A stretch of 15,506 nt of DNA from a virus (lineage: Duplodnaviria; Heunggongvirae; Uroviricota; Caudoviricetes), in the IMG/VR virus record IMGVR_UViG_2703718798_000014, positions 1 through 15,506 of that record; one strand, given 5' to 3'. The notes below the pieces were generated by a model. The model saw nothing but the letters and a program-made list of their open reading frames with translations. It made no database searches and was not told the DNA's origin. Position numbers and translations under genes: made by a program. This document shows, one piece after another, positions 492 through 15,506 of the stretch. Position 1 is the stretch's first letter; every line of letters begins with the position of its first letter.

Positions 492-576
492 TTTCTCATT
501 TAGTGTTTTTTGCGGTTCGGGGGTGTTCGTGGTTGTTTGTGTATGTATTTGATATTAAATGAATTATTCTATTTTC

Positions 577-644
577 TTGTTTGTTGTTGTTCGTCGTTGT
601 TCGTAGAGCTTCAACAAAATGTGTGGTCAGTTGTGTGGTCAGTT
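577..644. repeat. Left copy of a ~75-bp imperfect direct repeat (triple TTGTT box plus tandem GTGTGGTCAGTT x2), 36 bp upstream of int
   Basis: 566-643 aligns with 15423-15497 with about 6 mismatches; tandem 12-mer GTGTGGTCAGTT at 621-632 and 633-644. Confidence 0.7.
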
Positions 645-679
645 TTTTGAGGCTGGAGGACTGAAAAGAGGATCTGATA

Positions 680-1915
680 GTGGGAAAAGCACTAAACAAA
701 CTGAGCGATTCGACGTTAAAAAAATTGGCGGCTGTCCAGGCAGAAAAAGAGCGTTTTTACTCCGACGGGGGCGGGCTGGAGATTAAACACTCAAAAGGCG
801 GCAAATTAACCTGGTATTTTCGGTACCGAACGGGAGGCCGTGAGGTCGCCGCAGAGCGGTTAAAGCTGGGGGCTTACCCTGAGCTGTCGCTGAAAGCTGC
901 TAGGGAAAAACGCACACAGTGCCGGTCATGGCTGGCTGAGGGTAAAAATCCCCGTTATGAGTTGTGCGCCACAGTACAGGAAGCATTAAAACCCGTTACG
1001 GTGAAGGAGGCGATTAACTACTGGCTGGAGGAATACGCGAAGGATAATCGCAAAGACTACATAAAACTGGTGCAACGTATGGATAAGCACATCATTTGCC
1101 ATATAGGGGCAATCCCTCTTGATAAATGCGATACAAGGCAGTGGATCGCATGTTTTGACCGTGTACGAAAAAAAGCACCAGTAGCAGCAGGGCACGTCAT
1201 GCAAACCTGCAAACAGGCGCTAAAGTTCTGCCGCAGGAGGCGCTACGCGTTCAGTAATGCCCTGGACGATTTGATCGTCAGCGATGTGGGTAAGAGAGCA
1301 GAAATTCGCGAGAGGGTACACAGTAACAGCGAATTAAAGGAAATTTTACGCGCTATCGATGGTGATGTGTTCGCGCCTTACTACAGCGCGTTAATGCGCT
1401 TGCTGATTGTGTTCGGGTGCAGAACGGCAGAGGTCAGACTTTCAGAGATCAAAGAATGGGATCTGAAAGAAATGTTGTGGACAGTGCCAAAAGAGCACAG
1501 CAAAACGAAGGTAACGATATTCAGGCCAATCCCCGATGGCATTTTGCCGTTCATTCAGAAGCTGGTGGAGCAGAACCGACATACAGGGTTATTGCTCGGA
1601 GAACTGAAAAAAGATACCACGGTAGCGCAATATGGGCGAAATGCGCATAAGCGGCTTAACCAGGAACACTGGTCGCTGCATGACTTTCGCCACACGTTTA
1701 CAACGATGATGAACGATTTAGGTGTCGATCCGCATATCGTGGAGCACATCACAGCGCATCAGATGCCCGGTCAGCAAAAAACCTATAACCATTCACGCTA
1801 TTTACAGGCAAAGCGTGACGCCCTTAATCTATGGGTAGACCGTCTCGAGCTTCTCCAGAACAATGATGAAAAAATCGTTGTTATGATCCCGCGAATTTAC
1901 ACCCAAAATTCTTGA
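680..1915 (+). CDS. int: Tyrosine recombinase / phage integrase (P4-type, N-terminal arm-binding domain)
   Basis: 411 aa ORF with GTG start and AAGAGG RBS 8 nt upstream. C-terminal catalytic signature HDFRHTF...HITAH...YNHSRY (R/H-x-x-R/H, tyrosine). Lies at the island edge next to the junction. Confidence 0.9.
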   Translation: MGKALNKLSDSTLKKLAAVQAEKERFYSDGGGLEIKHSKGGKLTWYFRYRTGGREVAAERLKLGAYPELSLKAAREKRTQCRSWLAEGKNPRYELCATVQEALKPVTVKEAINYWLEEYAKDNRKDYIKLVQRMDKHIICHIGAIPLDKCDTRQWIACFDRVRKKAPVAAGHVMQTCKQALKFCRRRRYAFSNALDDLIVSDVGKRAEIRERVHSNSELKEILRAIDGDVFAPYYSALMRLLIVFGCRTAEVRLSEIKEWDLKEMLWTVPKEHSKTKVTIFRPIPDGILPFIQKLVEQNRHTGLLLGELKKDTTVAQYGRNAHKRLNQEHWSLHDFRHTFTTMMNDLGVDPHIVEHITAHQMPGQQKTYNHSRYLQAKRDALNLWVDRLELLQNNDEKIVVMIPRIYTQNS

Positions 1916-1958
1916 CAAATTACGGCTGTTTTTCTTGCGAAAAATGGCCCTCTAAAAT

Positions 1959-1991
1959 AAATCGTCGAATATCGGCAAATATCGACGATTT
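1959..1991. promoter_or_regulatory. Inverted repeat with perfect 10-bp arms (AAATCGTCGA / TCGACGATTT, 14-bp spacer) downstream of int
   Basis: Arms at 1959-1968 and 1982-1991 are exact reverse complements. No clear U-run follows, so a protein-binding site is as likely as a terminator. Confidence 0.35.
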
Positions 1992-2323
1992 ATATGTGTC
2001 AAGTATTGAAAAAATTTGAAATGTCTTCTTCTGAGTTCTTATTCTCTGTTTCTTGATTGTTCCAACACCTGATGGTTTATCTATTTGTTTTTAATGAGGT
2101 AACTCAGGTGTCATGCCAAATGACGACATTTTTTGTTGCGTCGCTTAAAAACTCGTGACACGATTTCATGAACAGCAGCAAACTCTAGAGAACTTTGACG
2201 AACATAAAGTTCAGAAAGGTTACGTATTCAATTTAAGAGGTGAAAAAAGCTAAGAAGTAATCTTTTCCCGTATATCCACAGCGAAACAAAAATTTCTATA
2301 CGTAATTTTATGTAGGGCTTTTT

Positions 2324-2518
2324 ATGCGCGAAATAAATGAAGATCGTGTAATCCGCGAAAAAGAATGCAGAGAGCTAACAGGCGTTTGCCGCACAACTCG
2401 TTACGAGATGGAAAAACAAGGCCGCTTTCCCTCCCGTATCAGTCTTGGCGGTCGTTCGGTTGGCTGGATTAAGTCTGAGGTTGTCGCCTGGGTCAAAAAC
2501 CGCGAACGCGTCAATTAA
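2324..2518 (+). CDS. alpA: AlpA-family (Xis-like, MerR-type winged helix) transcriptional regulator
   Basis: 64 aa; motif ELTGVCRTTRYEMEKQGRFPSRISLGGRSVGWIKSEVVAWV matches the AlpA pattern TG..R.T.Y....G.FP....LG.R.VGW..SE...W. Position immediately after int is typical of P4-like elements and PICIs. Confidence 0.85.
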   Translation: MREINEDRVIREKECRELTGVCRTTRYEMEKQGRFPSRISLGGRSVGWIKSEVVAWVKNRERVN

Positions 2519-2550
2519 GAATATTCATTCTTTAAATTCCGTCCGTGTTT

Positions 2551-2577
2551 TTGTTTGTACTTGTTCGCGGTTGTTCG
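2551..2577 (+). promoter_or_regulatory. Triple-box module TTGTTTGTAC-TTGTTCGCGG-TTGTTCG (10-bp register)
   Basis: Boxes begin at 2551, 2561, 2571. The same module recurs at 577-603, 15426-15452 and, in variant form, 7910-7936; a looser copy at 514-540. Followed by SD TAAGGAG (2608-2614) and ATG 2624. Confidence 0.55.
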
Positions 2578-2676
2578 TGAAGAAAAGAAGCGGCGCGTAT
2601 GCACCGCTAAGGAGTTTATTTTCATGACTTATGCAGCTTTCAATCTTAGCACCGCCGTAGCTGGTGGACAAGGCTA

Positions 2677-2904
2677 TCAGCCAGGCGGTCGGTTTTTGCC
2701 GGATTTAAGCCGCCGTGGGTATTTCTCGACAAAATCTTCAAGGGCAAATTTTTCTGGTGGCACTAAGCGCGGCGCTGGTGGTGGTATTTTTGTTCTGGTT
2801 AGTTCTTCCTCAAGTCTGGCGCAGGCTTCTGACTGCCTTTGCCGGATGATTTCATCATCTTGCGTTTGCGTGTCTTGTATTGGTGATAGTGTGTTGTTGG
2901 TCAT
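2677..2904 (-). CDS. Hypothetical protein (75 aa), second gene of leftward regulatory pair
   Basis: ORF downstream of and co-directional with the RHH gene; charged, helical-looking composition; weak RBS. No recognised domain. Confidence 0.4.
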   Translation of the reverse strand: MTNNTLSPIQDTQTQDDEIIRQRQSEACARLEEELTRTKIPPPAPRLVPPEKFALEDFVEKYPRRLKSGKNRPPG

Positions 2905-2961
2905 GATACTGCCCTGTAAAGCAATGCGCCGGAGTACCTCACACCACGGCGCTGATAGTGA

Positions 2962-3141
2962 TTATTCTGATTCTTTGGCCTTACGGCGCTGGCGGCGTTT
3001 GATCTCGCCTCGCATGGCTGTAACGATAAATTGCGCAGTGCTCTCGCCTGTTTCTTTTACTTGCTCCATAGCCTCAACAACTTCATGCGGGGCGCGAGCC
3101 TGTAATTTCTGTGATTTGTTATTGATATGGTCTCTTTCCAT
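2962..3141 (-). CDS. Ribbon-helix-helix (CopG/Arc/MetJ-like) DNA-binding protein, candidate island repressor
   Basis: 59 aa ORF, below the ORF-track length cutoff, translated by hand: MERDHINNKSQKLQARAPHEVVEAMEQVKETGESTAQFIVTAMRGEIKRRQRRKAKESE. Segment LQARAPHEVVEAMEQVKETGESTAQFIVTAM fits the RHH beta-strand/helix A/G-x-S turn/helix B pattern. AGGGA RBS 8 nt upstream. Start abuts a triple-palindrome operator. Confidence 0.5.
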   Translation of the reverse strand: MERDHINNKSQKLQARAPHEVVEAMEQVKETGESTAQFIVTAMRGEIKRRQRRKAKESE

Positions 3142-3157
3142 TTCTGGTTCCCTTTGT

Positions 3158-3259
3158 GATTACTGGAATCCAGTATACACGAAAAAGACCAAAACAAAAC
3201 GCTTGAAGTGGATTCCACTTAGTGATTATACTGGAATCCAGTTGAGTGTTTATCACTCA
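3158..3259. promoter_or_regulatory. Divergent promoter/operator region: three related palindromes (ACTGGAaTCCAGT x2, AAGTGGAtTCCACTT) plus IR TTGAGTG-N5-CACTCAA; candidate rightward promoter TTGAAG-N18-TATACT
   Basis: Perfect palindromes at 3163-3175, 3206-3220, 3230-3242. O1 and O3 sit in ~22-bp direct repeats (TGATTA(TA)CTGGAATCCAGT). -35 TTGAAG 3203-3208 and -10 TATACT 3227-3232 are overlapped by O2 and O3. A second TATACT on the minus strand (complement of 3173-3178) could serve the RHH gene. Confidence 0.5.
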
Positions 3260-3338
3260 ATGCAAACGAGGCTGAAAAGGATTGCCGTCCTTTCGCAGCC
3301 TCTGACCACCAACGATAGCGAAAGTATCGAGGTAGCTA

Positions 3339-3538
3339 TGAGAAATCATACCACACACCCGCAAGGGCGGGACTCGCACAACCTGAATAAATTCACCTGG
3401 CGCTTTATGCAGTGCCTGACAGACAGCATTGCAATATTCACCGTTACCGCTGCCACTGAACGCGAAGCCCGCGCCCAGTTGCCGCACGCACATCTGATTT
3501 TTGTCGCCCGTATTCGTCAGGGGGTGTGCCATGCCTGA
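3339..3538 (+). CDS. Hypothetical protein (66 aa; alternative start 3260 gives 93 aa), first gene of rightward operon
   Basis: GAGGT RBS 5 nt upstream of ATG 3339; E. coli-preferred codons; stop overlaps next gene start (coupling). Strand assignment is uncertain: an antisense ORF (3257-3532) covers the same DNA. Confidence 0.35.
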
Positions 3539-3851
3539 TATGTCAAATTACCAGTACCTGATTAATCCGCATTTTAAGTGTGATCATGATATTGCTAAGA
3601 AGGTTTATTCCGCTGCTGATGGGGCTACTGACAATATATCAATGGGTATTGCGTCAATTGGTAGCCTTATGTTTCATGCGTCAGAAAATGAGGAATATGA
3701 CGAAAAGGCCATGCGCATTGATATGGGTAATATCGGTTTGTTACTGGCAATGCTTGGACATTTTGATATTTCGTTACGGTGCACCATTGAAAATGCCACA
3801 GATGCATTAAATGCCATAAAGAAAGCGAATACTGATTCAAATCGGGGATAA
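3531..3851 (+). CDS. Hypothetical protein (106 aa)
   Basis: ATG 3531 with AGGGGG RBS 6 nt upstream; overlaps previous stop. No recognised motif. Confidence 0.5.
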   Translation: MPDMSNYQYLINPHFKCDHDIAKKVYSAADGATDNISMGIASIGSLMFHASENEEYDEKAMRIDMGNIGLLLAMLGHFDISLRCTIENATDALNAIKKANTDSNRG

Positions 3852-3857
3852 ATAATC

Positions 3858-4157
3858 ATGAGAACGTATTTATCTGGCTTGACTGCCAGCGGTTATGCAC
3901 ATCCAAAAATTATCCCCGGCGCTATTTATCGGGATAAGAACGGCAACAGAGTAACAGTAAAATCGATAATGTTTGACCGTGTGTATTTTATTCGTGATGG
4001 CTATTCATTTCATAGCTCGCTGAACGTGGAGATCTTTATTTGCAGATTCCGGCGGGAAATTCCGCCTTCCAGAAATAACCATGTGTCATGTATGGATGTT
4101 GATAAAAAACTACAGGAACTGAAAAACATGATTGCCGCGTGGAGAGAGCAGAAATGA
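3858..4157 (+). CDS. Hypothetical protein (99 aa)
   Basis: ATG 3858 with GGGGA RBS; stop overlaps primase start (ATGA). Confidence 0.5.
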   Translation: MRTYLSGLTASGYAHPKIIPGAIYRDKNGNRVTVKSIMFDRVYFIRDGYSFHSSLNVEIFICRFRREIPPSRNNHVSCMDVDKKLQELKNMIAAWREQK

Positions 4158-5971
4158 AAAAAGCGCCAAATTTAAAACACCAGCCACGTGACAAAATGAC
4201 GGAAGTCATCATTTTTGCGGGTAGTGATGCGTGGGCACATGCGAAGCAGTGGCAGGAACAGGACGGGCGACTGGCTGGCGATAACGTGCCACCTGTCTGG
4301 CTTGGAGAGCAACAACTTGCCGAACTGGACAACCTGCAAATCGTACCGGACGGACGCTATCGCGTGCGTCTCTATCAGGCGGGGTTATTGCGTTCGGGGC
4401 TTGTTAATACCATCGGGCAGAAACTGGCAGCGGCAGGTGTCAGGGATGCTGATTATTACCCTGAAGGAATGCACAGCCAGAAACGGGAGAACTGGCGCGA
4501 ATATCTGGAACGTGAGCGGGGAGATCTGACGGAAAAGAAAAAGGTAGTTGAACTGCCTGTAAAGAAAAAAGAGCGGGTAAAAGACGATAACGCTTCATCA
4601 CTGGCGCTTAACCAGATGGGAGCAAGTCAACGCGGCGAAGTTCTCCTGGCACATTATGGCGGTGAACTGGCGATTAATGCTGACTCTGACACTGTTCACC
4701 ATTACAACGGCGTTGTATGGGAGCCAGTACAGGATAAAGAATTACAGCGAGCTATGGCACAGATTTTCATTGATGCGGAGATCAGCTATTCGCAGAACGC
4801 CATTAAATCGGCGGTCGATACCATGAAGTTAAGTTTGCCTGTAATGGGGAATACAGCCCGTAACCTGATTGGATTCAGTAACGGGGTATTTGATACCCGT
4901 ACAGGTGATTTCCGTGAACACGATAAAAATGACTGGCTGTTAATTGCCAGTGAGTTACCGTTCACTCCACCAGCAGAAGGTGAAACGCTGGCAACACATG
5001 CGCCGAATTTCTGGAAGTGGTTACGCCGTTCGGTGGCTGAGAATGACCGCAAGGCAGATCGCGTTCTGGCAGCGTTATTTATGGTGCTGGCGAACCGGTA
5101 CGACTGGCAGTTATTCATTGAGGTAACAGGTCCAGGGGGAAGTGGTAAAAGCGTGATGGCGGAGATTTGCACCATGCTGGCGGGTAAGGCCAACACAGTA
5201 TCGGCAAGCATGAAGGCGCTGGAAGATGCAAGGGAACGCGCGTTAGTGGTTGGCTTTTCGCTGATTATCATGCCGGATATGACCCGCTACGCTGGTGATG
5301 GGGCAGGAATTAAGGCCATTACAGGCGGTGACAAGGTGGCAATTGACCCGAAACACAAAGCCCCCTACTCAACGCGTATTCCGGCAGTAGTGCTGGCGGT
5401 TAACAATAACGCCATGTCATTCAGTGACCGCAGCGGGGGGATCTCGCGCCGTCGGGTGATATTCAATTTTTCGGAAGTTGTACCGGAGAACGAACGCGAT
5501 TCAATGCTGGCGGAAAAAATAGAAGGTGAGCTGGCGGTAGTGATTCGTCATCTGCTTACACGGTTTGCTGACCAGGACGAAGCCAGACGCCTTTTATATG
5601 AGCAGCAGAAATCAGAAGAAGCACTCGCGATAAAGCGTGAAGGTGATTCGCTGGTGGACTTCTGCGGCTATCTCATGGCGTCGGTAATGTGTGATGGCCT
5701 GTTAGTGGGTAATGCTGAAATTGTGCCATTCAGCCCGCGCAGGTATCTCTATCATGCCTATCTGGCTTATATGAAGGCACATGGGTTTGGTAAACCTGTA
5801 ACACTGACGCGCTTCGGTAAAGATATGCCGGGGGCAATGGCGGAATATGGCAGGGAGTATATGAAACGGAAAACGAAGCACGGTTTGCGTTCAAACGTGA
5901 CACTGACGGAGGAATCAGAAGACTGGATGCCGTCATGTGTATCGGTCACTAATGACGATAGCAAAAATTAA
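4154..5971 (+). CDS. DNA primase/helicase, P4-family (SF3 helicase-type NTPase)
   Basis: 605 aa from ATG 4154 (GGAGAG RBS 7 nt upstream; the track start 4139 is an upstream GTG). Walker A GPGGSGKS in ...FIEVTGPGGSGKSVMAEI...; Walker B-like LIIMPD. Followed directly by an iteron array of the P4 ori type. Confidence 0.85.
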   Translation: MKKAPNLKHQPRDKMTEVIIFAGSDAWAHAKQWQEQDGRLAGDNVPPVWLGEQQLAELDNLQIVPDGRYRVRLYQAGLLRSGLVNTIGQKLAAAGVRDADYYPEGMHSQKRENWREYLERERGDLTEKKKVVELPVKKKERVKDDNASSLALNQMGASQRGEVLLAHYGGELAINADSDTVHHYNGVVWEPVQDKELQRAMAQIFIDAEISYSQNAIKSAVDTMKLSLPVMGNTARNLIGFSNGVFDTRTGDFREHDKNDWLLIASELPFTPPAEGETLATHAPNFWKWLRRSVAENDRKADRVLAALFMVLANRYDWQLFIEVTGPGGSGKSVMAEICTMLAGKANTVSASMKALEDARERALVVGFSLIIMPDMTRYAGDGAGIKAITGGDKVAIDPKHKAPYSTRIPAVVLAVNNNAMSFSDRSGGISRRRVIFNFSEVVPENERDSMLAEKIEGELAVVIRHLLTRFADQDEARRLLYEQQKSEEALAIKREGDSLVDFCGYLMASVMCDGLLVGNAEIVPFSPRRYLYHAYLAYMKAHGFGKPVTLTRFGKDMPGAMAEYGREYMKRKTKHGLRSNVTLTEESEDWMPSCVSVTNDDSKN

Positions 5972-5984
5972 ACTTATGGAATAA

Positions 5985-6213
5985 CTGTTCACCACTGTTC
6001 ACCCTGTCATAAATATCTTTTATATCAGTATATTATAGGGTGAACAGTTATTTATGAACTGTTCACCAAACTATTCACTGTTCACCTTTTTGATTGTTTA
6101 TTGAGCTTCAAGGGTGAACAGTGGTGAACAGTTGGTGAATAGTTTTTGTGAAACTGTTCACCCCTTAACATTATGAATTAAAAGATAAAATATCAAAAGG
6201 TGAACAGGTGAAG
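5985..6213. repeat. Replication origin: at least 9 exact copies of the octamer core TGTTCACC / GGTGAACA in both orientations (plus degenerate copies), flanking an AT-rich segment
   Basis: Direct (CTGTTCACC) at 5985, 5995, 6059, 6078, 6154, with degenerate 6071. Inverted (GGTGAACAG) at 6039, 6113, 6123, 6199, with degenerate 6134 and 6208. AT-rich 6010-6038. Octamer matches the P4 ori/crr type I iteron as I recall it. Confidence 0.75.
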
Positions 6214-6258
6214 GGTTAAAACGCAAAAATTTTAATTTACTGCTGTGAGATAAAGCCT

Positions 6259-6504
6259 ATGACAGCGAAGCACACAAAAAAATCACAATCGCACGCCCTT
6301 GATTTGACGGAACACTGGTTAAGGGTGTCGATAAAAATCATCGACCGCAACGCCGGGGAAGGATATGCGAAAGCACATCCCGAACTGATTAGCGCATTCA
6401 TGACAACGGCAGCTGCAAACTTTGCCACGCTGACAGAACGGGAGATTGCCGAAGCGGAACAGGTAACAACCATCAACGTTAAAACCGGAGAGGTGGAATC
6501 ATGA
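6259..6504 (+). CDS. Hypothetical protein (81 aa)
   Basis: First ORF after ori; no clear RBS; stop overlaps next start. Confidence 0.45.
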   Translation: MTAKHTKKSQSHALDLTEHWLRVSIKIIDRNAGEGYAKAHPELISAFMTTAAANFATLTEREIAEAEQVTTINVKTGEVES

Positions 6505-6806
6505 GCGAACCAAAATTTGGTGAAAAATTTTACAAGCACAACGGACGGATCACGATTCTGCAAATAAGCGCAGCTACACCAGGCTGGTGGGTTGAAACAG
6601 ACGAAGGATCCTCACCTGTGGCATCATGGGCGCTTTGTGTGCTTAGTTACCCTGACCGCGATGTGTATCAGGATATTCTGCCTGTGATATCCACTGACAA
6701 AGGCATGAAACCCGTAGACATCAAAAACATGGGTTTTCAGTGTGTAATGCTCACTGAAAAAATGATGGAAGAGATGAAAAAGAACAACGCCGGATCGCTT
6801 CACTGA
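6501..6806 (+). CDS. Hypothetical protein (101 aa)
   Basis: GGAGAGGTGG RBS; ATGA overlap with previous gene. Confidence 0.55.
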   Translation: MSEPKFGEKFYKHNGRITILQISAATPGWWVETDEGSSPVASWALCVLSYPDRDVYQDILPVISTDKGMKPVDIKNMGFQCVMLTEKMMEEMKKNNAGSLH

Positions 6807-6815
6807 GGTGGCAAT

Positions 6816-7226
6816 ATGACAGCACAAATTGCAGCTTACGGGCGGCTGGTGGACGACCCGCAGGTAAAACAGACCAGTAAGGGCACACCGATGACGCTGG
6901 CGCGTATGGCGGTATCGTTGCCATGTAGTCAGGCGCAGGATGGGCAGGCGACGTTATGGCTATCGGTCATCGCATTTGGTAAGCAGGCCGACTTCCTGGC
7001 TAAACATCAAAAAGGCGACGTTGCCAGCGTATCCGGCACGATGCAGGTCAGCCAGTGGACCGGACAGAACGGGGAAACGCGGCAGGGTTATCAGGTTATT
7101 GCAGACAGCGTAATCAGTGCCCGTGCGGCACGTCCTGGCGGGAACAGACGCAAAACCACAGGCACACAGGGTAATCAGCCACCAGCGGGAGGCGATGACC
7201 CTTACGGTGACGGTATTCCGTTCTGA
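6816..7226 (+). CDS. ssb: Single-stranded DNA-binding protein (OB-fold, SSB family) with short C-terminal ...DDPYGDGIPF tail
   Basis: GAGGTGG RBS. N-terminal YGRLVDDPQV...; core WLSVIAFGKQADFLAKHQKGDVASVSGTMQVSQWTGQNGETRQ aligns by eye with E. coli SSB (W..V..FGK.A....KG......G....WT...G); C-terminal GIPF resembles the DIPF tip. Confidence 0.75.
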   Translation: MTAQIAAYGRLVDDPQVKQTSKGTPMTLARMAVSLPCSQAQDGQATLWLSVIAFGKQADFLAKHQKGDVASVSGTMQVSQWTGQNGETRQGYQVIADSVISARAARPGGNRRKTTGTQGNQPPAGGDDPYGDGIPF

Positions 7227-7236
7227 GGGGGTGGCG

Positions 7237-7509
7237 ATGGTACATGACCGCATAGCGGAAGAACTCGAGGCGAAAGGCTTTTACCGGAGGGCGGCGGCGC
7301 GATGGGGTGAAGTCATGCTGCTGGTGGAGACAGACAAGGAACGGCATCAGGTTACGATGCGACGGCTGGAATGTTCCAGGAAGGCACAGAAGCCACCGGA
7401 GCCGCCGGATAACTTCGGAGACCTGAGAAAGGCAGTAGATCGCACTTATGCTGAAATGGGTATAGATGGTGTAAGCGATGAAATATGGCGTAATTACCCA
7501 GACAGCTAA
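7237..7509 (+). CDS. Hypothetical small protein (91 aa); possibly PerC-like regulator (tentative)
   Basis: ATG 7237 with GAGGGGG RBS (the track start 7117 is an upstream extension overlapping ssb). Motif EELEAKGFYRRAAARWGEVM resembles my recollection of PerC-family proteins; unverified. Confidence 0.5.
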   Translation: MVHDRIAEELEAKGFYRRAAARWGEVMLLVETDKERHQVTMRRLECSRKAQKPPEPPDNFGDLRKAVDRTYAEMGIDGVSDEIWRNYPDS

Positions 7510-7514
7510 TCAAC

Positions 7515-7858: not shown

Positions 7859-7868
7859 GCACGCATAC

Positions 7869-8150: not shown

Positions 8151-9308
8151 ATGCCGAGAATAATCGAATTACGCCAGCAGAAAACCGCCATTAAAAATCA
8201 GATGCGCGACATGCTGGAGAACGCGGAAAAAGAAAACCGCAGCCTTAACGATGCAGAGGGCGCAAAATTTGACGAATTACGCGCTAAAGCTGAATCCCTC
8301 GATAAAGACATTTCCCGCCTTGAAGCCATTGCAGACGAAGAGCGCAGCAAGCCAGGTAAAAGCAGCCAGACCACTGACCCGGCAGAACTCCGCAACTACA
8401 TCCTGACAGGTGAAACCCGCGCATTAAGTACAGGCGTTCCCGCTGATGGTGGTTATACCGTTATCCCCGAACTGAACACCGAAATCATGCGAATGCTGAC
8501 GGATGAATCCACCATGCGCCGCATCTGTACCGTGAAGAAAATCAGCAGCAACGAGTTTAAGCAGCTTGTTTCCGCTGGCGGTGCGACCGTTAACCACGGT
8601 GAAGAGGGTAAGACACGCGAACAGACCAGCACCCCGCAGATTAACGAGGTGAGCATTAAGCTGTATCCGGTCTATGCGTACCCGCGCACCACACAGGAAA
8701 TCGTGGATTTTTCCGATGTGGACATCCTTTCATGGCTGACGGGTGAGATTGGCGACACCTTCACGGAAACCGAAGAAAGCGATCTGGTTGTGGGCGACGG
8801 TGACAAAAAAGCAAAAGGTTTTTTATCCGTACCCCGTGCAGAGAAGAACGACAAAGAGCGTGATTTTGGTACGTTGCAGGTAATTAAACCTTCCGAATCT
8901 CTGGCGTGGACATCTGCGGACCCGCTGATCGACCTGAAATTTGCATTACGTAAAAAATACCGCAAAAACGCGGTCTGGGTGGTTAACTCCACGACGGCGG
9001 CAAAACTTCAGAAGGTGAAGAACGCGAACGGTGATTACATCTGGCGCGACCGTTTACAGGCTGGTGATCCTGATACGTTGCTGGGCCTTCCGGTCGAATA
9101 TCTGGAGTTTATGCCTGATAACGTTATTGCCCTGGGTGACTTCAAACGCGGTTACTACATTGTTGATCACGAAACAGGTGTTCGCACCAGACCGGACAAC
9201 CTCACAGAGCCGGGCTTCATCAAAATTTTCACGCAGAAATATTTAGGCGGTGGCGTGGTGGATTCGAACGCGATCAAGATTCTGGAACTGCCACAGGACG
9301 ACGATTAA
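8151..9308 (+). CDS. Major capsid protein, HK97 fold, with N-terminal delta (scaffold-like) domain
   Basis: 385 aa from ATG 8151 (the track start 8106 is an upstream TTG). N-terminal coiled-coil-like IELRQQKTAIKNQMRDMLENAEKENRSLNDAEGAKFDELRAKAESLDKDISRLEA; C-terminal half resembles HK97 gp5 by eye (...GDYIWRD...LLGLPVEY...GDFKRGYYIVDHETG...). Confidence 0.9.
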   Translation: MPRIIELRQQKTAIKNQMRDMLENAEKENRSLNDAEGAKFDELRAKAESLDKDISRLEAIADEERSKPGKSSQTTDPAELRNYILTGETRALSTGVPADGGYTVIPELNTEIMRMLTDESTMRRICTVKKISSNEFKQLVSAGGATVNHGEEGKTREQTSTPQINEVSIKLYPVYAYPRTTQEIVDFSDVDILSWLTGEIGDTFTETEESDLVVGDGDKKAKGFLSVPRAEKNDKERDFGTLQVIKPSESLAWTSADPLIDLKFALRKKYRKNAVWVVNSTTAAKLQKVKNANGDYIWRDRLQAGDPDTLLGLPVEYLEFMPDNVIALGDFKRGYYIVDHETGVRTRPDNLTEPGFIKIFTQKYLGGGVVDSNAIKILELPQDDD

Positions 9309-9318
9309 CAGCATACAG

Positions 9319-9347
9319 AAGGGGCTTAAAAGCCCCTTTAGTGTTTT
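9319..9347 (+). terminator. Stem-loop (AAGGGGCTT / AAGCCCCTT) after the capsid gene; partial terminator or stability element
   Basis: Perfect 9-bp inverted repeat 9319-9327 / 9330-9338, followed by T-rich TTTAGTGTTTT; sits between capsid stop and protease start. Confidence 0.4.
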
Positions 9348-9920
9348 ATGGGTGAAAAAATTATGAAGAGTATGGAAATCCGGTCATCGGAAATCACCAC
9401 CAGCGCCAGCAACACGCTTACAGGCTACGTTGTTCGCTGGGATAAGCTTTCAGAGCTGCTATGGGGGGAGTTTTACGAAAAATTCCAGCGGGGAGCGTTT
9501 ACTGAATGGCTTGCGGCGGGTAATGACGTTCGCGGCCTGTATGAGCATGACCACAGCATGTTGCTGGGGCGTACCCGTTCCGGCACGCTGAAACTGGAAG
9601 AGGACGAAACAGGGTTACGCTTTGAACTGACCCCACCGGATACCAGTACAGGGCGCGACGTTATCGAACTGGTTAAGCGTGGGGACATCTCGGGGATGAG
9701 CTTTGGCTTTCGCTCCCGTAAGGATGTATGGGATACCACAACAGATCCATGCGTGCGCACCGTGCTGGTGGCGGAACTGTACGAAATTACCGTTACATCG
9801 GTACCGGCTTACCCCGATTCCGGCGTGGAGCTGGCCCGCCGTTCCCTGTATGAGCAGCACCCCGAAAAAATGCCGCGTGCGGATAATCGCCGCTGGTGGG
9901 TGGATTTAGCGGGGGTGTGA
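9348..9920 (+). CDS. Prohead maturation protease, HK97 family (peptidase S78)
   Basis: Motifs TGYVVRWD, YEHDHSMLLGRTRSGTL, GRDVIELVKRGDISGMSFGF, ITVTSVPAYPDSG match the HK97 gp4-type protease pattern. Start ambiguous (ATG at 9348, 9363 or 9372). Confidence 0.85.
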   Translation: MGEKIMKSMEIRSSEITTSASNTLTGYVVRWDKLSELLWGEFYEKFQRGAFTEWLAAGNDVRGLYEHDHSMLLGRTRSGTLKLEEDETGLRFELTPPDTSTGRDVIELVKRGDISGMSFGFRSRKDVWDTTTDPCVRTVLVAELYEITVTSVPAYPDSGVELARRSLYEQHPEKMPRADNRRWWVDLAGV

Positions 9921-9921
9921 T

Positions 9922-11133
9922 ATGTGGCTTTTCAGAAGAAAAAAAGAGCAGCGCAGCATGACGCTTGATGAATTTATGGCGCTGGCTGGCACATCGAACA
10001 CGGGGGCGGGTGAGTACGTATCATCGGGGACAGCGGAATCACTGCCCGCCGTCATGAACGCCGTGACGGTCATCTCTGAGGCGGTGGCTACCATGCCGTG
10101 TTACCTGTACCTGGTACGCAATGAGAAGGGTAAGGAGGCCCGCGAGTGGCTTGATTCTCATCCGGTCGATCATATCCTCAACGAGCGCCCGAACGCATGG
10201 CAAACCCCCTACCAGTTTAAGCGAATGATGATCCGCCACTGCCTGTTAAACGGTAATGCTTACGCGGTGATTCAGTGGGGGCGTGATGGTTTTCCGGCGG
10301 CTTTACATCCTTACCCGCCGCAGTCGGTGAACGTGGAGCAGACAGGAGAACACAACTGGCGCTATTGCATCACTGACGCCTACACCGGAAACACCCGCAA
10401 CTATTTACCGTGGGAAGTACTTCACCTTCGTTACTCCACGGATGACGGCTTTATGGGGCGCTCACCTGTAACCATCTGCCGCGAATCGCTGGGGCTTGGG
10501 CTGGCCCAACAACGCCACGGCGCGAGCGTGATGCGTGATGGCATGATGGCGGCAGGGGTTATCACGTCAGGCGAATGGCTGGACGGCGTGAAAGGCAAAC
10601 AGGCATTAGCCGCACTGGAACGCTACAAAGGGGCCAGAAACGCCGGAAAAACGCCCATCCTTGAAGGGGGCATGAGTTACCAGCAGCTGGGCATGAGTAA
10701 CCAGGACGCCGAATGGCTGGCCTCCCGTCGCTTCACCATTGAAGACATCGCCCGAATGTTCAACGTCTCGCCGATTTTTCTGCAGGAATACAGCAACAGC
10801 ACCTACAGCAATTTCAGCGAGGCAAGCCGCGCATTTCTCACCATGACGATGCGCCCGTGGCTGGCGAACTTTGAGCAGCAGATAAAAAACGCCTTGCTGG
10901 TGGTCTCGCCTGTACCTGGTATCCGGTATCAGGTGGAGTTTGACAGCGCGGACCTGTTACGGGCCACACCTGGCGAACGCTTTGCCACCTATGAGCGAGG
11001 CATCAAATCCGGTGTTATGTGCCCGAACGAAGCCCGCGAACGAGAAGGGTTGTCTCCGCGTGATGGTGGTGATGAGTTCAGCCAGGCATGGAAACAGGAA
11101 GTAAAAATCAGCGAGGGAGAAAAACCGGAATGA
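9922..11133 (+). CDS. Portal protein, HK97 family
   Basis: 403 aa; portal-like motifs ERPNAWQTPYQF, LLNGNAYAVIQW, GRSPVTICRESLGLGLA, DAEWLASRRFTIEDIARMFNVSPIFL, NEAREREGL. GGGGGTG RBS; position after protease. Confidence 0.9.
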   Translation: MWLFRRKKEQRSMTLDEFMALAGTSNTGAGEYVSSGTAESLPAVMNAVTVISEAVATMPCYLYLVRNEKGKEAREWLDSHPVDHILNERPNAWQTPYQFKRMMIRHCLLNGNAYAVIQWGRDGFPAALHPYPPQSVNVEQTGEHNWRYCITDAYTGNTRNYLPWEVLHLRYSTDDGFMGRSPVTICRESLGLGLAQQRHGASVMRDGMMAAGVITSGEWLDGVKGKQALAALERYKGARNAGKTPILEGGMSYQQLGMSNQDAEWLASRRFTIEDIARMFNVSPIFLQEYSNSTYSNFSEASRAFLTMTMRPWLANFEQQIKNALLVVSPVPGIRYQVEFDSADLLRATPGERFATYERGIKSGVMCPNEAREREGLSPRDGGDEFSQAWKQEVKISEGEKPE

Positions 11134-11468
11134 ACATAGGGCGACTGCGTGACAGGGTAACGATTCAGACCCTGAAACAGACCAGAGCCATGACGGGCGA
11201 AATACTCGAAACGTGGGAGGACGGTCACACACTCTGGGCAAGCGTGAACATGGTCAGCAGCAAGGAGGCCATTTCATCGGGTGCAGAGCTGGCGATTGGT
11301 ACCGTAAGGATCTGGATACGGTACCGGAAGGACATCAACGCCACCAGCCGGATAAAGGTCAATACGGGGCCGCTGGCGGGGCGTGTACTGAATATCATCG
11401 GGCAGCCGCTGCCGGATGCCGCCAGGACACGCCTTGAAATTCTTTGTCGTGAGGGCGCGGAAAAATGA
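11130..11468 (+). CDS. Head closure / head-tail joining protein (Phage_H_T_join-like)
   Basis: 112 aa from ATG 11130 (ATGA overlap with portal stop; the track start 11088 is an upstream extension). N-terminus MNIGRLRDRVTIQ and ...WASV...IRYRKDI... fit the head-tail joining family pattern. Confidence 0.7.
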   Translation: MNIGRLRDRVTIQTLKQTRAMTGEILETWEDGHTLWASVNMVSSKEAISSGAELAIGTVRIWIRYRKDINATSRIKVNTGPLAGRVLNIIGQPLPDAARTRLEILCREGAEK

Positions 11469-11761
11469 CAGAAGAACTTATCACCCTGGAAGAAGTGAAA
11501 CTCCATTGCCGCATCGATGGCGACGAGGAAGACCAGTTAATCAGCGGATACATTGCCGCATCGCTTGAGGCGTGCCAGATACACATAGGCAGGCGCTTTG
11601 ATGACGGGCTGGAGTTCACGCCAGCCATAAAGATTGGCTGCATGATGTTTATCGCTCACCTGTATGAGAATCGCCAGATTGTCGCGGATAACGCAAAAAC
11701 ACACGTACCCATGACGATTGGCGCACTCTGGACGGCTTACCGTGATGTGGGGGTGTACTGA
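11465..11761 (+). CDS. gp6-like head-tail connector (DNA-packaging) protein
   Basis: 98 aa; N-terminus LITLEEVKLHCRIDGDEEDQLISGYIAASLEACQIHIGRRF matches the gp6-like connector pattern; start overlaps previous stop. Confidence 0.7.
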   Translation: MTEELITLEEVKLHCRIDGDEEDQLISGYIAASLEACQIHIGRRFDDGLEFTPAIKIGCMMFIAHLYENRQIVADNAKTHVPMTIGALWTAYRDVGVY

Positions 11762-12201
11762 TGCCGTGGCAACCATTAAGACGATGTACAGAACCAGGCT
11801 GCAACAGGCGCGTGAAGTCCGGCAAGTGTGAGGAGCACAGACGCAGCGCACGCCAGCAGCAGGACAGCCGGAGAGGCAGCAGCAGGGAGCGAGGGTATAC
11901 GAGGCAGTGGGAGAAATACCGCGCCATGTATCTGAGTAAAAACCCGTTATGTGCGCATTGCCTGGAAAAAGGAATATACACGCCCGCCGTGGTGGTGGAT
12001 CACATTATCCCAATCGATGGCGGTAATGATGTTCTCTTCTGGCCTGAGTGGAATCATCAGCCATTGTGCCAGGCGTGTCATAACCAGAAAACGAAATGGC
12101 TTGATCCGTCCACAAAAAACAAGCGTGCTGCGGGTGGATTCCGTGAGGAGGAAGAACGGGCCGCTAACCGCAATAACTGGATGTATGGCGCTGATGAATG
12201 A
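11761..12201 (+). CDS. HNH endonuclease (packaging-associated)
   Basis: 146 aa; zinc-finger/HNH signature CTEPGCNRRVKSGKCEEH...NPLCAHCL...VDHIIPIDGGND...NHQPLCQACHNQKT. Position just upstream of the terminase genes is typical of HNH/cos-packaging HK97-like heads. Confidence 0.85.
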   Translation: MPWQPLRRCTEPGCNRRVKSGKCEEHRRSARQQQDSRRGSSRERGYTRQWEKYRAMYLSKNPLCAHCLEKGIYTPAVVVDHIIPIDGGNDVLFWPEWNHQPLCQACHNQKTKWLDPSTKNKRAAGGFREEEERAANRNNWMYGADE

Positions 12202-12367
12202 GCGGGAACAAAACCGCCTTATCCGTGGACTTATAAGGCAGCGTGACGCATGGAAGGCACAGGAAACAGGGCATAAAGATAAAGCATCAGGACGCGCAGA
12301 ACGCATCACAGCGACGCGATTAAACGACCGTGACCGCGAGGTTATGGAATGTTTCCGCAATCGCTGA
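12194..12367 (+). CDS. Possible small basic protein (57 aa) between HNH and cos candidate
   Basis: ATG 12194 (or 12185), weak RBS, overlaps HNH stop. Product MNEREQNRLIRGLIRQRDAWKAQETGHK... The track ORF 11951-12367 is an upstream extension overlapping HNH. Confidence 0.3.
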   Translation: MNEREQNRLIRGLIRQRDAWKAQETGHKDKASGRAERITATRLNDRDREVMECFRNR

Positions 12368-12370
12368 TGA

Positions 12371-12489
12371 GGCAGCCGGACGGGGTGGGGGGAGTTTTCA
12401 GGACGAACCCGACCCCGCCCAGAACCGAACGCCTCCTCAAATTTTTATGCACGGGAATTTTTTGAAAAATAATCTGGCGAAAAATAAGC
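12371..12489. other. Candidate cos (terminase recognition/cleavage) region: G-rich imperfect inverted repeat followed by AT-rich A-tract DNA
   Basis: GGACGGGGTGGGG (12378-12390) and CCCGACCCCGCCC (12408-12420) are imperfect inverse complements; then AAATTTTTATGCACGGGAATTTTTTGAAAAATAAT. Located between HNH and TerS as in HK97-like cos phages. Confidence 0.35.
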
Positions 12490-12846
12490 ATGGCAAGACC
12501 ACCGAAAGTCCCCGCCTACCTGGATGACATCGCCGTGAAGCAGTGGCGGGAAAAATCGCGGCAGCTTGCGGAACGGGGAGACCTGACCCCCGCCGACTGG
12601 AGCAATCTGGAACTGTATTGTGTCAACTACTCCATTTACCGGAAAGCCGTTGCAGACCTTGCGGCGCGCGGGTTCAGCATTGTTAACAGTCAGGGCGGCG
12701 AGAGCAGAAACCCCGCATTAAGCGCAAAATCCGACGCTGAAAGAGTGATGATAAAAATGGCCTCCTTGCTCGGTTTTGACCCGATAAGCCGCCGTAAAAA
12801 TCCACCGGAAACAGAAGAAGAGGACGAGCTTGACCGCCTGGAATAA
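12490..12846 (+). CDS. terS: Terminase small subunit (P27 / HK97 gp1 family)
   Basis: 118 aa; pattern ...AVKQWREKSRQLAERGDLTPADWSNLELYCVNYSIYRKAVADL...SRNPALSAKSDAERVMIKMASLLGFDPISRRK matches P27-family small terminase; stop overlaps TerL start. Confidence 0.85.
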   Translation: MARPPKVPAYLDDIAVKQWREKSRQLAERGDLTPADWSNLELYCVNYSIYRKAVADLAARGFSIVNSQGGESRNPALSAKSDAERVMIKMASLLGFDPISRRKNPPETEEEDELDRLE

Positions 12847-14491
12847 GTACGCAGAAGACGTAAAAACGGGCAAAATTCCGGCCTGTAAACGGCTGAAACA
12901 GGCCGTTAAACGGTACTTTTCGGACCTTAAAAACCCCCTTTATACGTTCGATCGTGAGGTTGTGGAGCGGTTTATTGCCTTTTCCAGGGTGTGCCCGCAC
13001 GTAAAAGGGCCGATGCGTGGCAGACCCATTGAGCTGGAGCCGTGGCAGCAGTTCGCCTTTGCGTGCATCCTCGGCTTTAAGGTTAAGGCCACCGGACGGC
13101 GCAAATACACGAGCGCCTTTATCGAAGTGCCGCGCAAAAATGCTAAATCAACGACCGCCGCGATTCTGGCTAACTGGTTTCTGATTATGGAGAACGGTCA
13201 GCAGGATATTTACACCGCAGCGGTGAGCCGTGACCAGGCGAGGATCGTATTTGATGATGCGCGTCAGATGTGCATTTTATCCCGACCGTTACGCAGGCGG
13301 GTGAATATTCAGGCGCATAAGGTGATACACCCGAAAACCAACAGCCTGTTAAAGCCGCTGGCAGCAAAAGCGGCAACTATCGAGGGCACAAACCCCAGTC
13401 TTTCTATCGTGGACGAATACCACCTACACCCCGACAACGGCGTATATTCTGCGCTTGAACTGGGGATGGGGGCACGTCCCGAAGGGCTGTTATTTGCCAT
13501 TACCACATCGGGAAGTAACGTCGTTTCAGCCTGTAAGCAGCATTATGATTATTGCTGCCAGATCCTGGACGGCGAAGAGGTTAACGAATCGCTTTTTGTG
13601 CTGATTTACGAACTGGACGACGAAAACGAGGTTGATGATCCGGAGATGTGGATAAAGGCGAACCCTAATATCGATGTTTCCGTGGATCGTGAAAAACTGG
13701 CCTCAACCATTCAGAAAGCGCGGGGTATTCCGTCGCAATGGGTGGAGATGATGACAAAGCGATTTAATATCTGGTGTCAGGGGACTACCCCGTGGATGGG
13801 TAATGGTGCATGGGCTGAGTGTGCCGGAACGTTCACGGAGGAAGATTTACACGGTCAGGAGTGTTACGCGGGGCTGGACTTATCATCAACCAGCGATATT
13901 TCCAGCGTGTGCTATGCCTTTCCGGTCGGTAAAACCATTATGATGATTTCCCGTCATTATCTGCCGGAGTTCCAGCTACAGAACCCCGCCAATAAAAACC
14001 GCGCTGTCTATCGTCAGTGGGCTAAAGCAGGCTGGATACGCACAACGCCTGGCGACTGCATTGATTACGACCGGATCAGAGATGACATCATGCAGGACGC
14101 GGAGAAATTTAATATCAGGCTGGTGGGCTTTGATACGTGGAACGCCACGCATCTCAGAACGCAATTACAGGGGGCAGGTTTTGAGGTGGAGCCGTTCCCG
14201 CAAACCTACCTCAGATTCAGTCCGGCGGCGAAATCGTTCGAAGTTTTTGTTAACCGCAGGGTGATTGTGCATCGTGGCGATCCGGTGTTGTCCTGGTCGA
14301 TGAGTAACGTCGTGATGCAGAGTGACGCGAACGCCAATATCAAGCCGAACAAGAAAAAATCACCGAACAAGATAGACCCGAGCGTGGCGGCGCTGATGGC
14401 GTTTGGTACATTCCAGGCAGAGCATGAGGATTTTGCTTTTGATATAAGCGACAGCCACCGCCAGAAACTGGAAGAATTTAGCGGGGTGTAA
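12830..14491 (+). CDS. terL: Terminase large subunit (HK97 gp2 / Terminase_1 family)
   Basis: 553 aa; apparent TTG start overlapping terS. ATPase motif VPRKNAKSTTAA (the PRKNGKS-type Walker A of this family) and C-terminal nuclease-like region. Confidence 0.9.
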   Translation: MTAWNKYAEDVKTGKIPACKRLKQAVKRYFSDLKNPLYTFDREVVERFIAFSRVCPHVKGPMRGRPIELEPWQQFAFACILGFKVKATGRRKYTSAFIEVPRKNAKSTTAAILANWFLIMENGQQDIYTAAVSRDQARIVFDDARQMCILSRPLRRRVNIQAHKVIHPKTNSLLKPLAAKAATIEGTNPSLSIVDEYHLHPDNGVYSALELGMGARPEGLLFAITTSGSNVVSACKQHYDYCCQILDGEEVNESLFVLIYELDDENEVDDPEMWIKANPNIDVSVDREKLASTIQKARGIPSQWVEMMTKRFNIWCQGTTPWMGNGAWAECAGTFTEEDLHGQECYAGLDLSSTSDISSVCYAFPVGKTIMMISRHYLPEFQLQNPANKNRAVYRQWAKAGWIRTTPGDCIDYDRIRDDIMQDAEKFNIRLVGFDTWNATHLRTQLQGAGFEVEPFPQTYLRFSPAAKSFEVFVNRRVIVHRGDPVLSWSMSNVVMQSDANANIKPNKKKSPNKIDPSVAALMAFGTFQAEHEDFAFDISDSHRQKLEEFSGV

Positions 14492-14504
14492 TGAGGTCAG
14501 CAGC

Positions 14505-14786
14505 ATGACAGAAGCCGAAATAACGGGATTAATCCGCCGCGTTGCCGGAATCAGCCAGCAGGCTGACGAACAGGCCACGCAGCCGGACAGCGTGACAGCC
14601 GAAAACTATGCGCGTGTTGTTGCTGAGGTGATGCGCCGTGATGGTATAGAACTTAATGGCGTGGATATGCGCAACATACGAACCAGAGTTCTTGAGTTGC
14701 TGGCCTACCGTCGCCGCGTGGAGATGTATCGGGAGAAGGAGAAAATAACGTACCACTGGAAGAAGCCGGAGCGGTTGCGGCGGTAA
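14505..14786 (+). CDS. Hypothetical protein (93 aa) downstream of TerL
   Basis: GAGGT RBS 7 nt upstream of ATG 14505; basic C-terminus. No recognised motif. Confidence 0.5.
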   Translation: MTEAEITGLIRRVAGISQQADEQATQPDSVTAENYARVVAEVMRRDGIELNGVDMRNIRTRVLELLAYRRRVEMYREKEKITYHWKKPERLRR

Positions 14787-15081
14787 CTGGTTGATATTCC
14801 CGACGGACCAAAAATGGGTGGCTACATCCCTCGCTTCTGAGGACTGTTAACAAGCTGCCTGAAAGACAGTCACAAACTACGAAATTTTCGCAGTTTAATT
14901 AATGATCAGCTTAATCGCTAACCCGCTGATATTTTCGGAAACCTCAATTTGAGGAAGTCGGCGCGGTAACTCGCTGAACTTTAAGCAAAGTGCAAAATTG
15001 CGCTTGCTGAATAATCATTATGATTACGCAGATGATTAAGGAATGACCGAAGGCGGAAATTCGCCTGTGGTTAATGGGGGA

Positions 15082-15362
15082 GTTGCAGATCTGCAACTCG
15101 ACCATGAAACTACGGAAACTACCCGTAGTTTGGGTAGTAAGAGTAACACCCAGATTTTGGGTCTTACTCGTGATACCCAAATTTGGGGTATCAGTGGCAA
15201 CCATAACGACTTTCGTTACGGTTGATGCTTTTACCCCATTGGGGGAAAGGTATTACGATAATCATAACACCTACCGAACAGGTAAAGCCCACCAGCCTGA
15301 TTAACGTTTAACCGGAAAAAAATTCCGGTAGGTGGGGATCCCCATATCGGGGAACATCCACC
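15082..15362. other. Palindrome-dense non-coding segment (8 or more distinct inverted repeats), candidate structured RNA or multi-protein recognition site
   Basis: GTTGCAGATCTGCAAC (15082-15097); AAACTACGG/CCGTAGTTT (15107-15131); nested AGTAAGA...ACCCAGATTTTGGGT...TCTTACT (15136-15168); GATACCCAAATTTGGGGTATC (15172-15192); CCCCATTGGGG (15234-15244); CCGGAAAAAAATTCCGG (15312-15328); GGTGGGGATCCCCATATCGGGGAACATCCACC (15331-15362). No plausible ORF. Confidence 0.45.
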
Positions 15363-15422
15363 AGCTTCATAACGGATAGCCGGAAAATGATAACGGTTAA
15401 GCAAAACCGCCAGCAAATTTCC

Positions 15423-15497
15423 CTTTTGTTTGTTATTGTTCGTCATTGTTCGCAGAGCTTCAACGAAATGTGTGGTCAGTTGTGTGGTCAGTTTTTA
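15423..15497. repeat. Right copy of the ~75-bp imperfect direct repeat (triple TTGTT box plus tandem GTGTGGTCAGTT x2)
   Basis: 15423-15497 aligns with 566-643. Boxes at 15426, 15436, 15446; tandem 12-mer at 15469-15492. Homology ends after CAGTTTTT; the window ends 9 bp later. Confidence 0.7.
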
Positions 15498-15506
15498 GGT
15501 TTTTAA

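Follow-up and report, generated by a model that had tools for sequence, protein, structure and literature searches.

A 15-kb element inserted in the thiM riboswitch of Escherichia coli is very probably an additional capsid-forming phage-inducible chromosomal island

Introduction

The IMG/VR virus record IMGVR_UViG_2703718798_000014 (15,506 nt, analysed over its whole length and called the window below) raises the question of what kind of element combines an integrase and a replication module with a full set of phage head and DNA packaging genes and has no genes for a tail. A first-pass annotation, made from the nucleotide sequence alone, had interpreted positions 492-15506 as a tailless satellite of the capsid-forming phage-inducible chromosomal island (cf-PICI) type, i.e. 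an element that builds and fills its own small capsid and must borrow tails from a helper phage. Our analysis leads to the same answer: we are highly confident that the region 492-15506 is practically the entire, intact cf-PICI of E. coli, a mosaic sibling of the prototype EcCIEDL933, with only its final ~65 nt off the window. The cf-PICI family has already been published (Alqurainy et al. 2022/2023); the element is an extra member of it and no new kind, and the side observations (Chi sites, the riboswitch as insertion site, the repeats and the right end) are the sole parts that might be new.

Results and discussion

Delimitation of the element

The first-pass annotation had left both ends of the element to be defined. 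The left junction, determined from an empty E. coli site, lies at 491/492: window positions 1-491 are 100% identical to the sequence upstream of thiM in E. coli GF3-3, and the match stops at 491. The last 13 bp before the junction (479-491) constitute the core GAAATACCCGTAT of the left attachment site (attL). The right junction was obtained from the contig L007 (GCA_001606525.1), which was found among the contigs encoding exactly the large terminase subunit (TerL) of the window and exhibits 0 mismatches over 12,677 bases with positions 2830-15506. Past the point that corresponds to the window end, L007 contains 52 nt of element DNA, followed by a second copy of GAAATACCCGTAT, the 3' half of a thiamine pyrophosphate (TPP) riboswitch and the genes thiM, thiD, yegX and yegW; in window numbering the attR core would occupy positions 15559-15571. 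It had been pointed out in the first-pass annotation that tail or lysis genes just beyond the window would turn the element into the head end of an ordinary prophage. Since in L007 the core is repeated and then followed by chromosomal thiM-thiD-yegX, the element is ~15.08 kb long and is not such a fragment. The same junctions are seen in two complete genomes that have a related element at thiM. A tRNA gene as the att target was ruled out: ARAGORN finds no tRNA or tmRNA, and the att site is the riboswitch.

Gene content and gene order

Rightward genes follow each other almost unbroken from 680 to 14786; each gene of the window is as long as its homologues according to the protein comparison with the relatives, and int, the att repeats, alpA, the origin and the terminase genes are all intact. 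The Pfam profile search matched all gene families named in the first-pass annotation, from the integrase through TerL and in the order stated there, and all the Pfam calls for these named genes are above the curated gathering scores. Of what characterizes the cf-PICIs, the following is found here: a discrete island in the range of ~10-16 kb with the integrase at one end and att direct repeats at a specific site, the backbone of Gram-negative PICIs (alpA, pri-rep and an origin immediately 3' of rep), an own head and packaging set with all eight components above the gathering scores, the Proteobacterial gene order across 8151-14491, and the lack of tail and lysis genes.

The backbone, encoded on the + strand, begins with a tyrosine integrase (Int, 680-1915) with an arm-type DNA-binding domain (PF13356, 65 bits; PF00589, 62 bits), which is 96.5% identical to the integrases of other thiM-site elements and 66-69% identical to those of elements located at tqsA or cspD/clpS. 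It is followed by the regulator AlpA (2324-2518; PF05930, 58 bits), which in the PICI family is induced by the helper and activates the PICI cycle (PMC6092414; 10.1101/2022.09.08.507074). The Pri-Rep protein (4154-5971) had been annotated as a P4-family primase; it is indeed a D5/P4-alpha-like primase-helicase (PF08706, D5_N; PF19263, DUF5906; PF03288, Pox_D5), but the family label does not hold, as its score against the NCBIfam model TIGR01613 (96.9 bits) is below the cutoff of 108.7. The iteron origin of the first-pass annotation was recovered at 5984-6208, where 10 copies of GGTGAACAGT, present in both orientations inside nested inverted repeats, directly follow the primase stop codon; the whole window contains 11 matches to this motif, with 0.73 expected. 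PICI origins lie immediately 3' of the rep gene (PMC6092414), and the origin of the window is placed likewise.

The head and packaging module (also on the + strand) starts with an HK97-fold major capsid protein (8151-9308; PF05065, 208 bits; TIGR01554, 295 bits), identical in 385/385 residues to PDB entry 9gyi. It is followed by a prohead serine protease (9348-9920; PF04586, 164 bits) and a portal protein (9922-11133; PF04860, 303 bits), whose nearest solved relatives are phage and gene transfer agent (GTA) portals. Next come a head closure/head-tail adaptor protein (11130-11468; PF05521; TIGR01563, SPP1-gp16-type head closure) and a gp6-like head-tail connector (11465-11761; PF05135; TIGR01560), within which PDB 2kz4, a "putative head-tail adaptor", is matched at 230 bits; in the cf-PICI family the adaptor and the connector form the tail-docking interface and set the tail specificity (10.1101/2025.02.11.637232). 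The module is completed by an HNH endonuclease (11761-12201; PF01844), the short orf60 (12185-12367; phrog_3173), by its position the counterpart of EcCIEDL933 gene 1792, the small terminase subunit TerS of the P27 family (12490-12846; PF05119; TIGR01558) and TerL (12830-14491; PF03354 and PF20441).

The intergenic region between hnh/orf60 and terS (12368-12489) is a candidate cos site: it contains non-coding blocks conserved as far as the Pasteurella Pmp8 element, and the vB_KppS-Ant record is linearised at the region matching it. From these sequence comparisons we infer that cos lies within 12368-12489.

The head genes had also been described as permuted relative to HK97, with the capsid gene first and the terminase last. 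The published order of Proteobacterial cf-PICIs is capsid-protease-portal-head connectors, then hnh-terS-terL (10.1101/2022.09.08.507074). As the window matches this documented order, the "permutation" is a family trait and no novelty. The capsid-first arrangement is a real difference (capsid-protease-portal in the window versus portal-protease-capsid in HK97). In the packaged genome of HK97, terS-terL are at the start and hnh is at the end. Provided that cos is located between hnh and terS, the element would likewise be packaged with terS-terL at the start and hnh at the end, and the terminase-last order is thus in part only apparent, reflecting the position of att relative to the candidate cos.

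Relationship to EcCIEDL933 and other capsid-forming islands

The prototype EcCIEDL933 is a 15.4-kb island with int, alpA, rep, the capsid, protease, portal and connector genes, HNH, TerS and TerL and no tail genes; its transfer needs each packaging gene, alpA and the tail genes of the helper, the helper capsid gene being dispensable, and its induction and infective particles were shown with helpers HK106 and HK446 (10.1101/2022.09.08.507074). The element of the window resembles it in size class (15.08 vs 15.4 kb), gene content and gene order, and the assignment to the cf-PICIs is backed by its near-identity to this experimentally studied lineage and by the identical capsid protein. The number of chains in PDB 9gyi, four, agrees with the asymmetric unit of four proteins reported for EcCIEDL933, whose capsids are T=4, and the capsid protein of the window has D257, K290, D295, E319 and R345, all of them residues that were mutated in the study of the EcCIEDL933 capsid (10.1101/2025.02.11.637232). 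To judge from the 100% identity to 9gyi, the element is likely to form small (T=4, ~47 nm) island-encoded capsids that package island DNA only.

Compared with the tqsA-site element of an O157:H7 strain, the DNA is ~96% identical over 76% of the window, and the proteins of the head, packaging and replication block are closely similar (protease 98%, portal 99%, adaptor 95.5%, connector 99%, HNH 88%, TerS 99%, TerL 98%, Pri-Rep 97% and SSB 98.5% identity). In contrast, Int is only 66% and AlpA 64% identical, the regulatory segment from alpA to icd is a different one, the window has an extra orf101, and the att site is the thiM TPP riboswitch instead of tqsA. The element is thus a mosaic that combines a prototype-like replication and head block with another type of integration module.

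Islands of this architecture were found at tqsA, at cspD/clpS, at thiM and next to phoQ, in each case with genes of the chromosome on both sides. The complete E. coli genomes contain no full-length match with at least 99% identity, the best ones covering 87% of the sequence at 93.5% and 80% at 96.5% identity. None of 50,697 phage records shares the DNA of the head module above 70% identity; six records match at 66-70%. Three of these are complete, measure 10.7-16.5 kb and are laid out in the same way; two are short fragments, and in the sixth, a Klebsiella phage of 106 kb, the match is at the end. The three complete small records are probably satellites deposited as phages. Two elements from other hosts, vB_KppS-Ant (LR881103, 16.5 kb) and Pasteurella Pmp8 (OR544139, 15.3 kb), have the same head-packaging block with int and a primase at 66-70% DNA identity and no tail module, and differ from the window in their accessory genes; both are filed as phages but are probably cf-PICIs. 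Between terL and int, vB_KppS-Ant encodes a 766-aa protein; its label, "tail length tape measure protein", is probably a mis-annotation of an accessory gene.

As a well-delimited additional cf-PICI, the element adds little to satellite biology overall. Several points weigh against its assignment as an intact, EcCIEDL933-like satellite. The right junction was taken from the identical contig L007 and not from the window. The strain used for the comparison is an O157:H7 strain other than EDL933, and its element was equated with EcCIEDL933 on the basis of the serotype, the tqsA location and the capsid identical to 9gyi. The divergence of Int, AlpA and the alpA-to-icd segment implies that the inducing signal and the helper range could differ from those of the prototype. 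Such islands do decay, as terL of the relative H1 is frameshifted; the genes of the window are of full length. Finally, we infer the satellite lifestyle (helper induction and tail theft) from EcCIEDL933, and the same applies to helper identity, induction, excision, the cos ends and the capsid size.

Alternative interpretations

The first alternative is that the region represents the head-gene half of an ordinary HK97-like prophage in decay, whose tail, lysis and immunity genes have been lost by deletion. All the head and packaging genes do belong to families shared with HK97-type phages: like HK97 and HK106/HK446, the element has an HK97-fold capsid with a protease and portal, and P27-family TerS, TerL and HNH adjoining the presumed cos; moreover, pseudogenes occur among its relatives, e.g. 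in H1 mentioned above. However, its borders are precise 13-bp att repeats with thiM directly after, the same 15-kb architecture with a PICI-type int-alpA-pri arrangement recurs at at least four att sites, no tailed phage in the collection shares the head module at the DNA level, the gene order is unlike that of HK97 and equals the published cf-PICI order, and the prototype with the identical capsid protein is an experimentally functional satellite. The contiguous tail, lysis and immunity modules of a temperate HK97-like prophage are missing: thiM, thiD and yegX directly follow attR in L007, and none of the open reading frames (ORFs) on either strand of the window matches a tail or lysis family in Pfam, NCBIfam or PHROGs. 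Ten antisense ORFs gave no Pfam match, and none of the small ORFs has a membrane-helix-like stretch. The element further differs from HK97 and HK106/HK446 in the lack of recombination genes and, if the prototype is a guide, in head geometry (T=4 vs T=7), and the phage homologues of cf-PICI proteins are of low protein identity according to the literature. The precise att borders, together with the recurrence of the 15-kb unit at several sites, exclude a decayed prophage for practical purposes, and we regard this origin as very improbable.

Still less probable is a P4-like satellite or a classical PICI, which would redirect the capsid proteins of a helper without a head of its own. The element does share with P4 an integrase, a regulator of the Vis/AlpA type and an alpha-like primase-helicase, and presumably also helper dependence and small capsids, Int, AlpA (related to P4 Vis) and a D5/P4-alpha-like primase being common to both kinds of satellites. 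With the classical PICIs (EcCICFT073, EcCIED1a; Fillol-Salom et al. 2018, 2019) it has in common the int-alpA-pri/rep backbone, the origin 3' of rep, mostly rightward transcription, the conserved last gene orf93, the non-coding modules of the right end, and shared integrase types and att sites. An example of the latter is the 11-kb classical PICI of ST130 (L005 2881-14270), which occupies the thiM riboswitch site with an integrase 96.5% identical to that of the window. Yet the element encodes a capsid protein, protease, portal, connectors, HNH, TerS and TerL, which those satellites lack. P4 has no genes for a capsid, portal or terminase, uses Sid to resize the capsids of P2 and can persist as a plasmid; the classical PICIs use helper capsids and, via Rpp, helper TerS/TerL, and have a lambda-like cos. 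Of the genes expected for a P4-like satellite (sid, psu, delta and cnr/eta, in the absence of head genes), no families were identified and a full head module is present instead; the Pfam and PHROG searches yielded no homologue of Sid, Psu, Delta or Rpp (DUF1441), and the window contains no P4 morphogenesis or regulatory genes. Likewise, the combination of Rpp and lambda-like cosN typical of classical cos PICIs is lacking: there is no DUF1441/Rpp-like protein, and the lambda cosN sequence GGGCGGCGACCT is absent from the window, the best match having 2 mismatches and the number of near matches being at the chance level.

The ST130 PICI encodes only a capsid protein, a decoration protein and a connector, with no terminase or portal. 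The fact that a classical PICI has the same thiM site and integrase type indicates that integration modules are exchanged between PICI lineages; the cf-PICI of the window illustrates such modular exchange, with a prototype-like head, packaging and replication block joined to an int/att module otherwise found on classical thiM-site PICIs.

An immobile, domesticated relic (an encapsulin- or GTA-like producer of heads with no helper dependence or response) is just as poorly placed: the Rhodobacter gene transfer agent has a distantly similar capsid and portal, and cf-PICIs were reported to release tail-less capsids without a resident helper (10.1101/2025.02.11.637232), but the mobility, replication and packaging functions listed above are intact, GTAs carry tail genes and are without int and rep, and near-identical modules are present at several chromosomal sites in different lineages, which argues for recent mobility.

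Proposed mode of action

Following the prototype EcCIEDL933 and the work on the PICI cycle (PMC6092414), a helper siphovirus of the HK106/HK97-like, HNH-dependent cos group would induce alpA, AlpA would switch the island on, Int would excise it at the 13-bp core, and Pri-Rep would replicate it from its own iteron origin. The island capsid protein, protease and portal would assemble small T=4 heads, HNH, TerS and TerL would cut the island cos (probably located in the intergenic region between hnh and terS) and load each head with one 15-kb genome, and the adaptor and connector would dock ready-made helper tails, giving infective particles. As the adaptor and the connector are 95.5% and 99% identical to those of the O157 element, tails of the HK106 type are the best guess.

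The thiM riboswitch as insertion site

The empty site (L003 4442-4538) contains a complete TPP riboswitch (RF00059, 71.2 bits; cutoff 54.3). The att core lies in the middle of the aptamer of this thiM riboswitch, and the insertion splits it between the two sensor helices. Accordingly, window positions 442-491 (+ strand) correspond to its severed 5' half, of which the final 13 nt are the att core, and the score of the region 442-547 against RF00059 is only 19.9 bits. The possibility that the riboswitch is restored at either junction was rejected, since both the window and the attR side in L007 (12681-12790) are below the RF00059 threshold and the empty site is above it. The 5' half is left ~15 kb away from the 3' half and thiMD. 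As the insertion separates thiMD from their native upstream region, these genes must be expressed without the riboswitch and the native promoter. The element is thereby an example of insertion into a riboswitch. A search of 5,425 genomes with the attB stretch gave 290 more match places than there are records, a rough sign that the thiM site may be occupied in a few per cent of strains. Nothing specific on thiM as an att site for PICIs was found in the literature, the search of which did not include the supplementary att tables (six sites) of the cf-PICI paper.

The chromosomal flank upstream of the riboswitch (1-438) is variable, and only GF3-3 matched all of 1-491; in that strain the flank adjoins a remnant of an insertion sequence and genes with NACHT and RelA/SpoT domains. 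In the thiM-site relatives JNEC-KY202 and ST130, rcnR is found upstream in place of the flank seen in the window.

Repeats in the att arms and regulatory regions

Inside the left junction, the att arm (523-647, + strand) consists of 10-bp-phased TTGTTCG repeats (523-602) and one copy of a 71-nt direct repeat (577-647). The right arm (15350-15506, + strand), specific to the thiM-site att type, contains the second copy of the 71-nt repeat (15426-15496) and further TTGTTCG repeats (15426-15451). Both copies of the 71-nt repeat, which are 94% identical, include tandem TGTGTGGTCAGT and are probably recombination arm sites; in the excised circle they would flank the attP core. The repeats of the left arm (523-647) are probably binding sites for Int and/or AlpA.

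The pattern TTGTTCG-N3-TTGTTC, in 10-bp phase and always on the + strand, has 9 hits in the window, compared with 0.16 expected. The repeats form four clusters, namely inside attL (523-602), after alpA (2551-2576), upstream of the capsid operon (7910-7935) and inside attR (15426-15451), and are found again at corresponding positions in relatives whose integrases are of other types. AlpA or the arm domain of Int is a plausible candidate for the protein that binds them.

Enrichment in Chi sites

The element contains 17 Chi sites (GCTGGTGG), 11 on the + and 6 on the - strand, compared with 0.42 predicted from shuffled sequences, and the flank in the window has none. They span positions 1561-15365 (e.g. 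14119-14126 on the + strand and 15289-15296 on the - strand). Their density is 1.13/kb, compared with 0.21/kb in 68 kb of flanking chromosome of the fetched loci, i.e. ~5 times higher (Poisson P = 3e-8). Other E. coli PICIs, both capsid-forming and classical, also have ~1 Chi/kb, including segments not homologous to the window. For comparison, Chi-rich lambdoid phages that lack a recombinase are reported to have ~0.2 Chi/kb (PMC3784561), a fifth of the PICI value. We found no report of Chi enrichment in PICIs in the literature.

No RecBCD inhibitor or recombinase is recognisable in these E. coli PICI satellites, so that host Chi/RecBCD may be what protects and recombines their linear concatemers and the cos-ended DNA that enters the cell. 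Should the enrichment hold up, it would suggest how satellites without an anti-RecBCD function survive as linear DNA. Only tentatively do we propose that the family exhibits adaptations at the DNA level, with Chi-rich PICIs perhaps relying on host Chi/RecBCD, together with an integrase type that uncouples thiMD from the TPP riboswitch.

The right end

The last gene, orf93 (14505-14786, + strand; phrog_1561), is conserved in this position in E. coli PICIs: a homologue of 282 nt is the last gene in cf-PICIs and classical PICIs alike. It is followed by a modular non-coding region (14787-15349) composed of ~88-nt repeat units (14880-15060) and two palindrome-rich modules (15075-15197 and 15196-15349). 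These shuffled modules are shared with classical PICIs, and are in part also present in a lambdoid prophage downstream of the Q antiterminator gene (L018). The small ORF 15043-15225 in this region has no PHROG or Pfam match. The interpretation of the right end as a lambda-type cos like that of classical PICIs was rejected, as no cosN is present.

The segment 15060-15350 folds far better than shuffled sequences (z-scores -7.5 and -8.5). The hairpin region has no Rfam match even at E<=1, its covariation is weak (a two-sided change in 1/25 consensus pairs among 10 sequences), and several of the "hairpins" are loop-less DNA palindromes containing GATC. An invariant block of 24 nt (15279-15303) corresponds to a Chi site with conserved flanks.

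A perfect inverted repeat of 18 nt connects terL (14114-14131) with the invariant block of the right end (15284-15301), and both of its arms are Chi sites with identical 5-nt flanks. Its interpretation as a target of an antisense RNA is unsupported, given that both arms are Chi and that an A/G variant of the right end does not covary with the site in terL. A third, partial copy (ATCAGGCTGGTGGGC) is located in the regulatory region of the relatives L002, L004 and L011.

Small genes and terminator-like hairpins

Between alpA and pri-rep, two small genes on the - strand, orf75 (2677-2904) and a YlcI/YnfO-family protein (2962-3141; NF041551, 72 bits), were adopted from the gene calls of L007, which start from window position 2830; phrog_949 is assigned within this pair (2677-3141). 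They are followed on the + strand by an Icd-like protein (3338-3538; NF033153), orf106 (3531-3851) and a DUF4222 protein (3858-4157; PF13973), with phrog_15327 assigned within this group of early genes (3338-4157). A 327-aa ORF (2555-3538) was rejected as probably no gene: it has no Pfam match, and small genes are found in its place in L007 and in the annotated relatives.

The region between the origin and the capsid operon (6259-7858, + strand) encodes orf81 and orf101 (PHROGs), SSB (6816-7226; PF00436), a PerC-family regulator (7237-7509; PF06069) and orf74 (7634-7858; PHROGs). According to NCBIfam and PHROGs, the small proteins of the element comprise one Icd-like and one YlcI/YnfO protein and seven others that belong to PHROGs of unknown function.

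Two terminator-like hairpins of nearly the same sequence (AGCCGGAGNAATCCGGCT and a subsequent T run) are located after perC (7515-7532) and after orf74 (7869-7886), and a further one directly follows the capsid gene (9318-9339). Their positions suggest attenuated read-through into and within the head operon.

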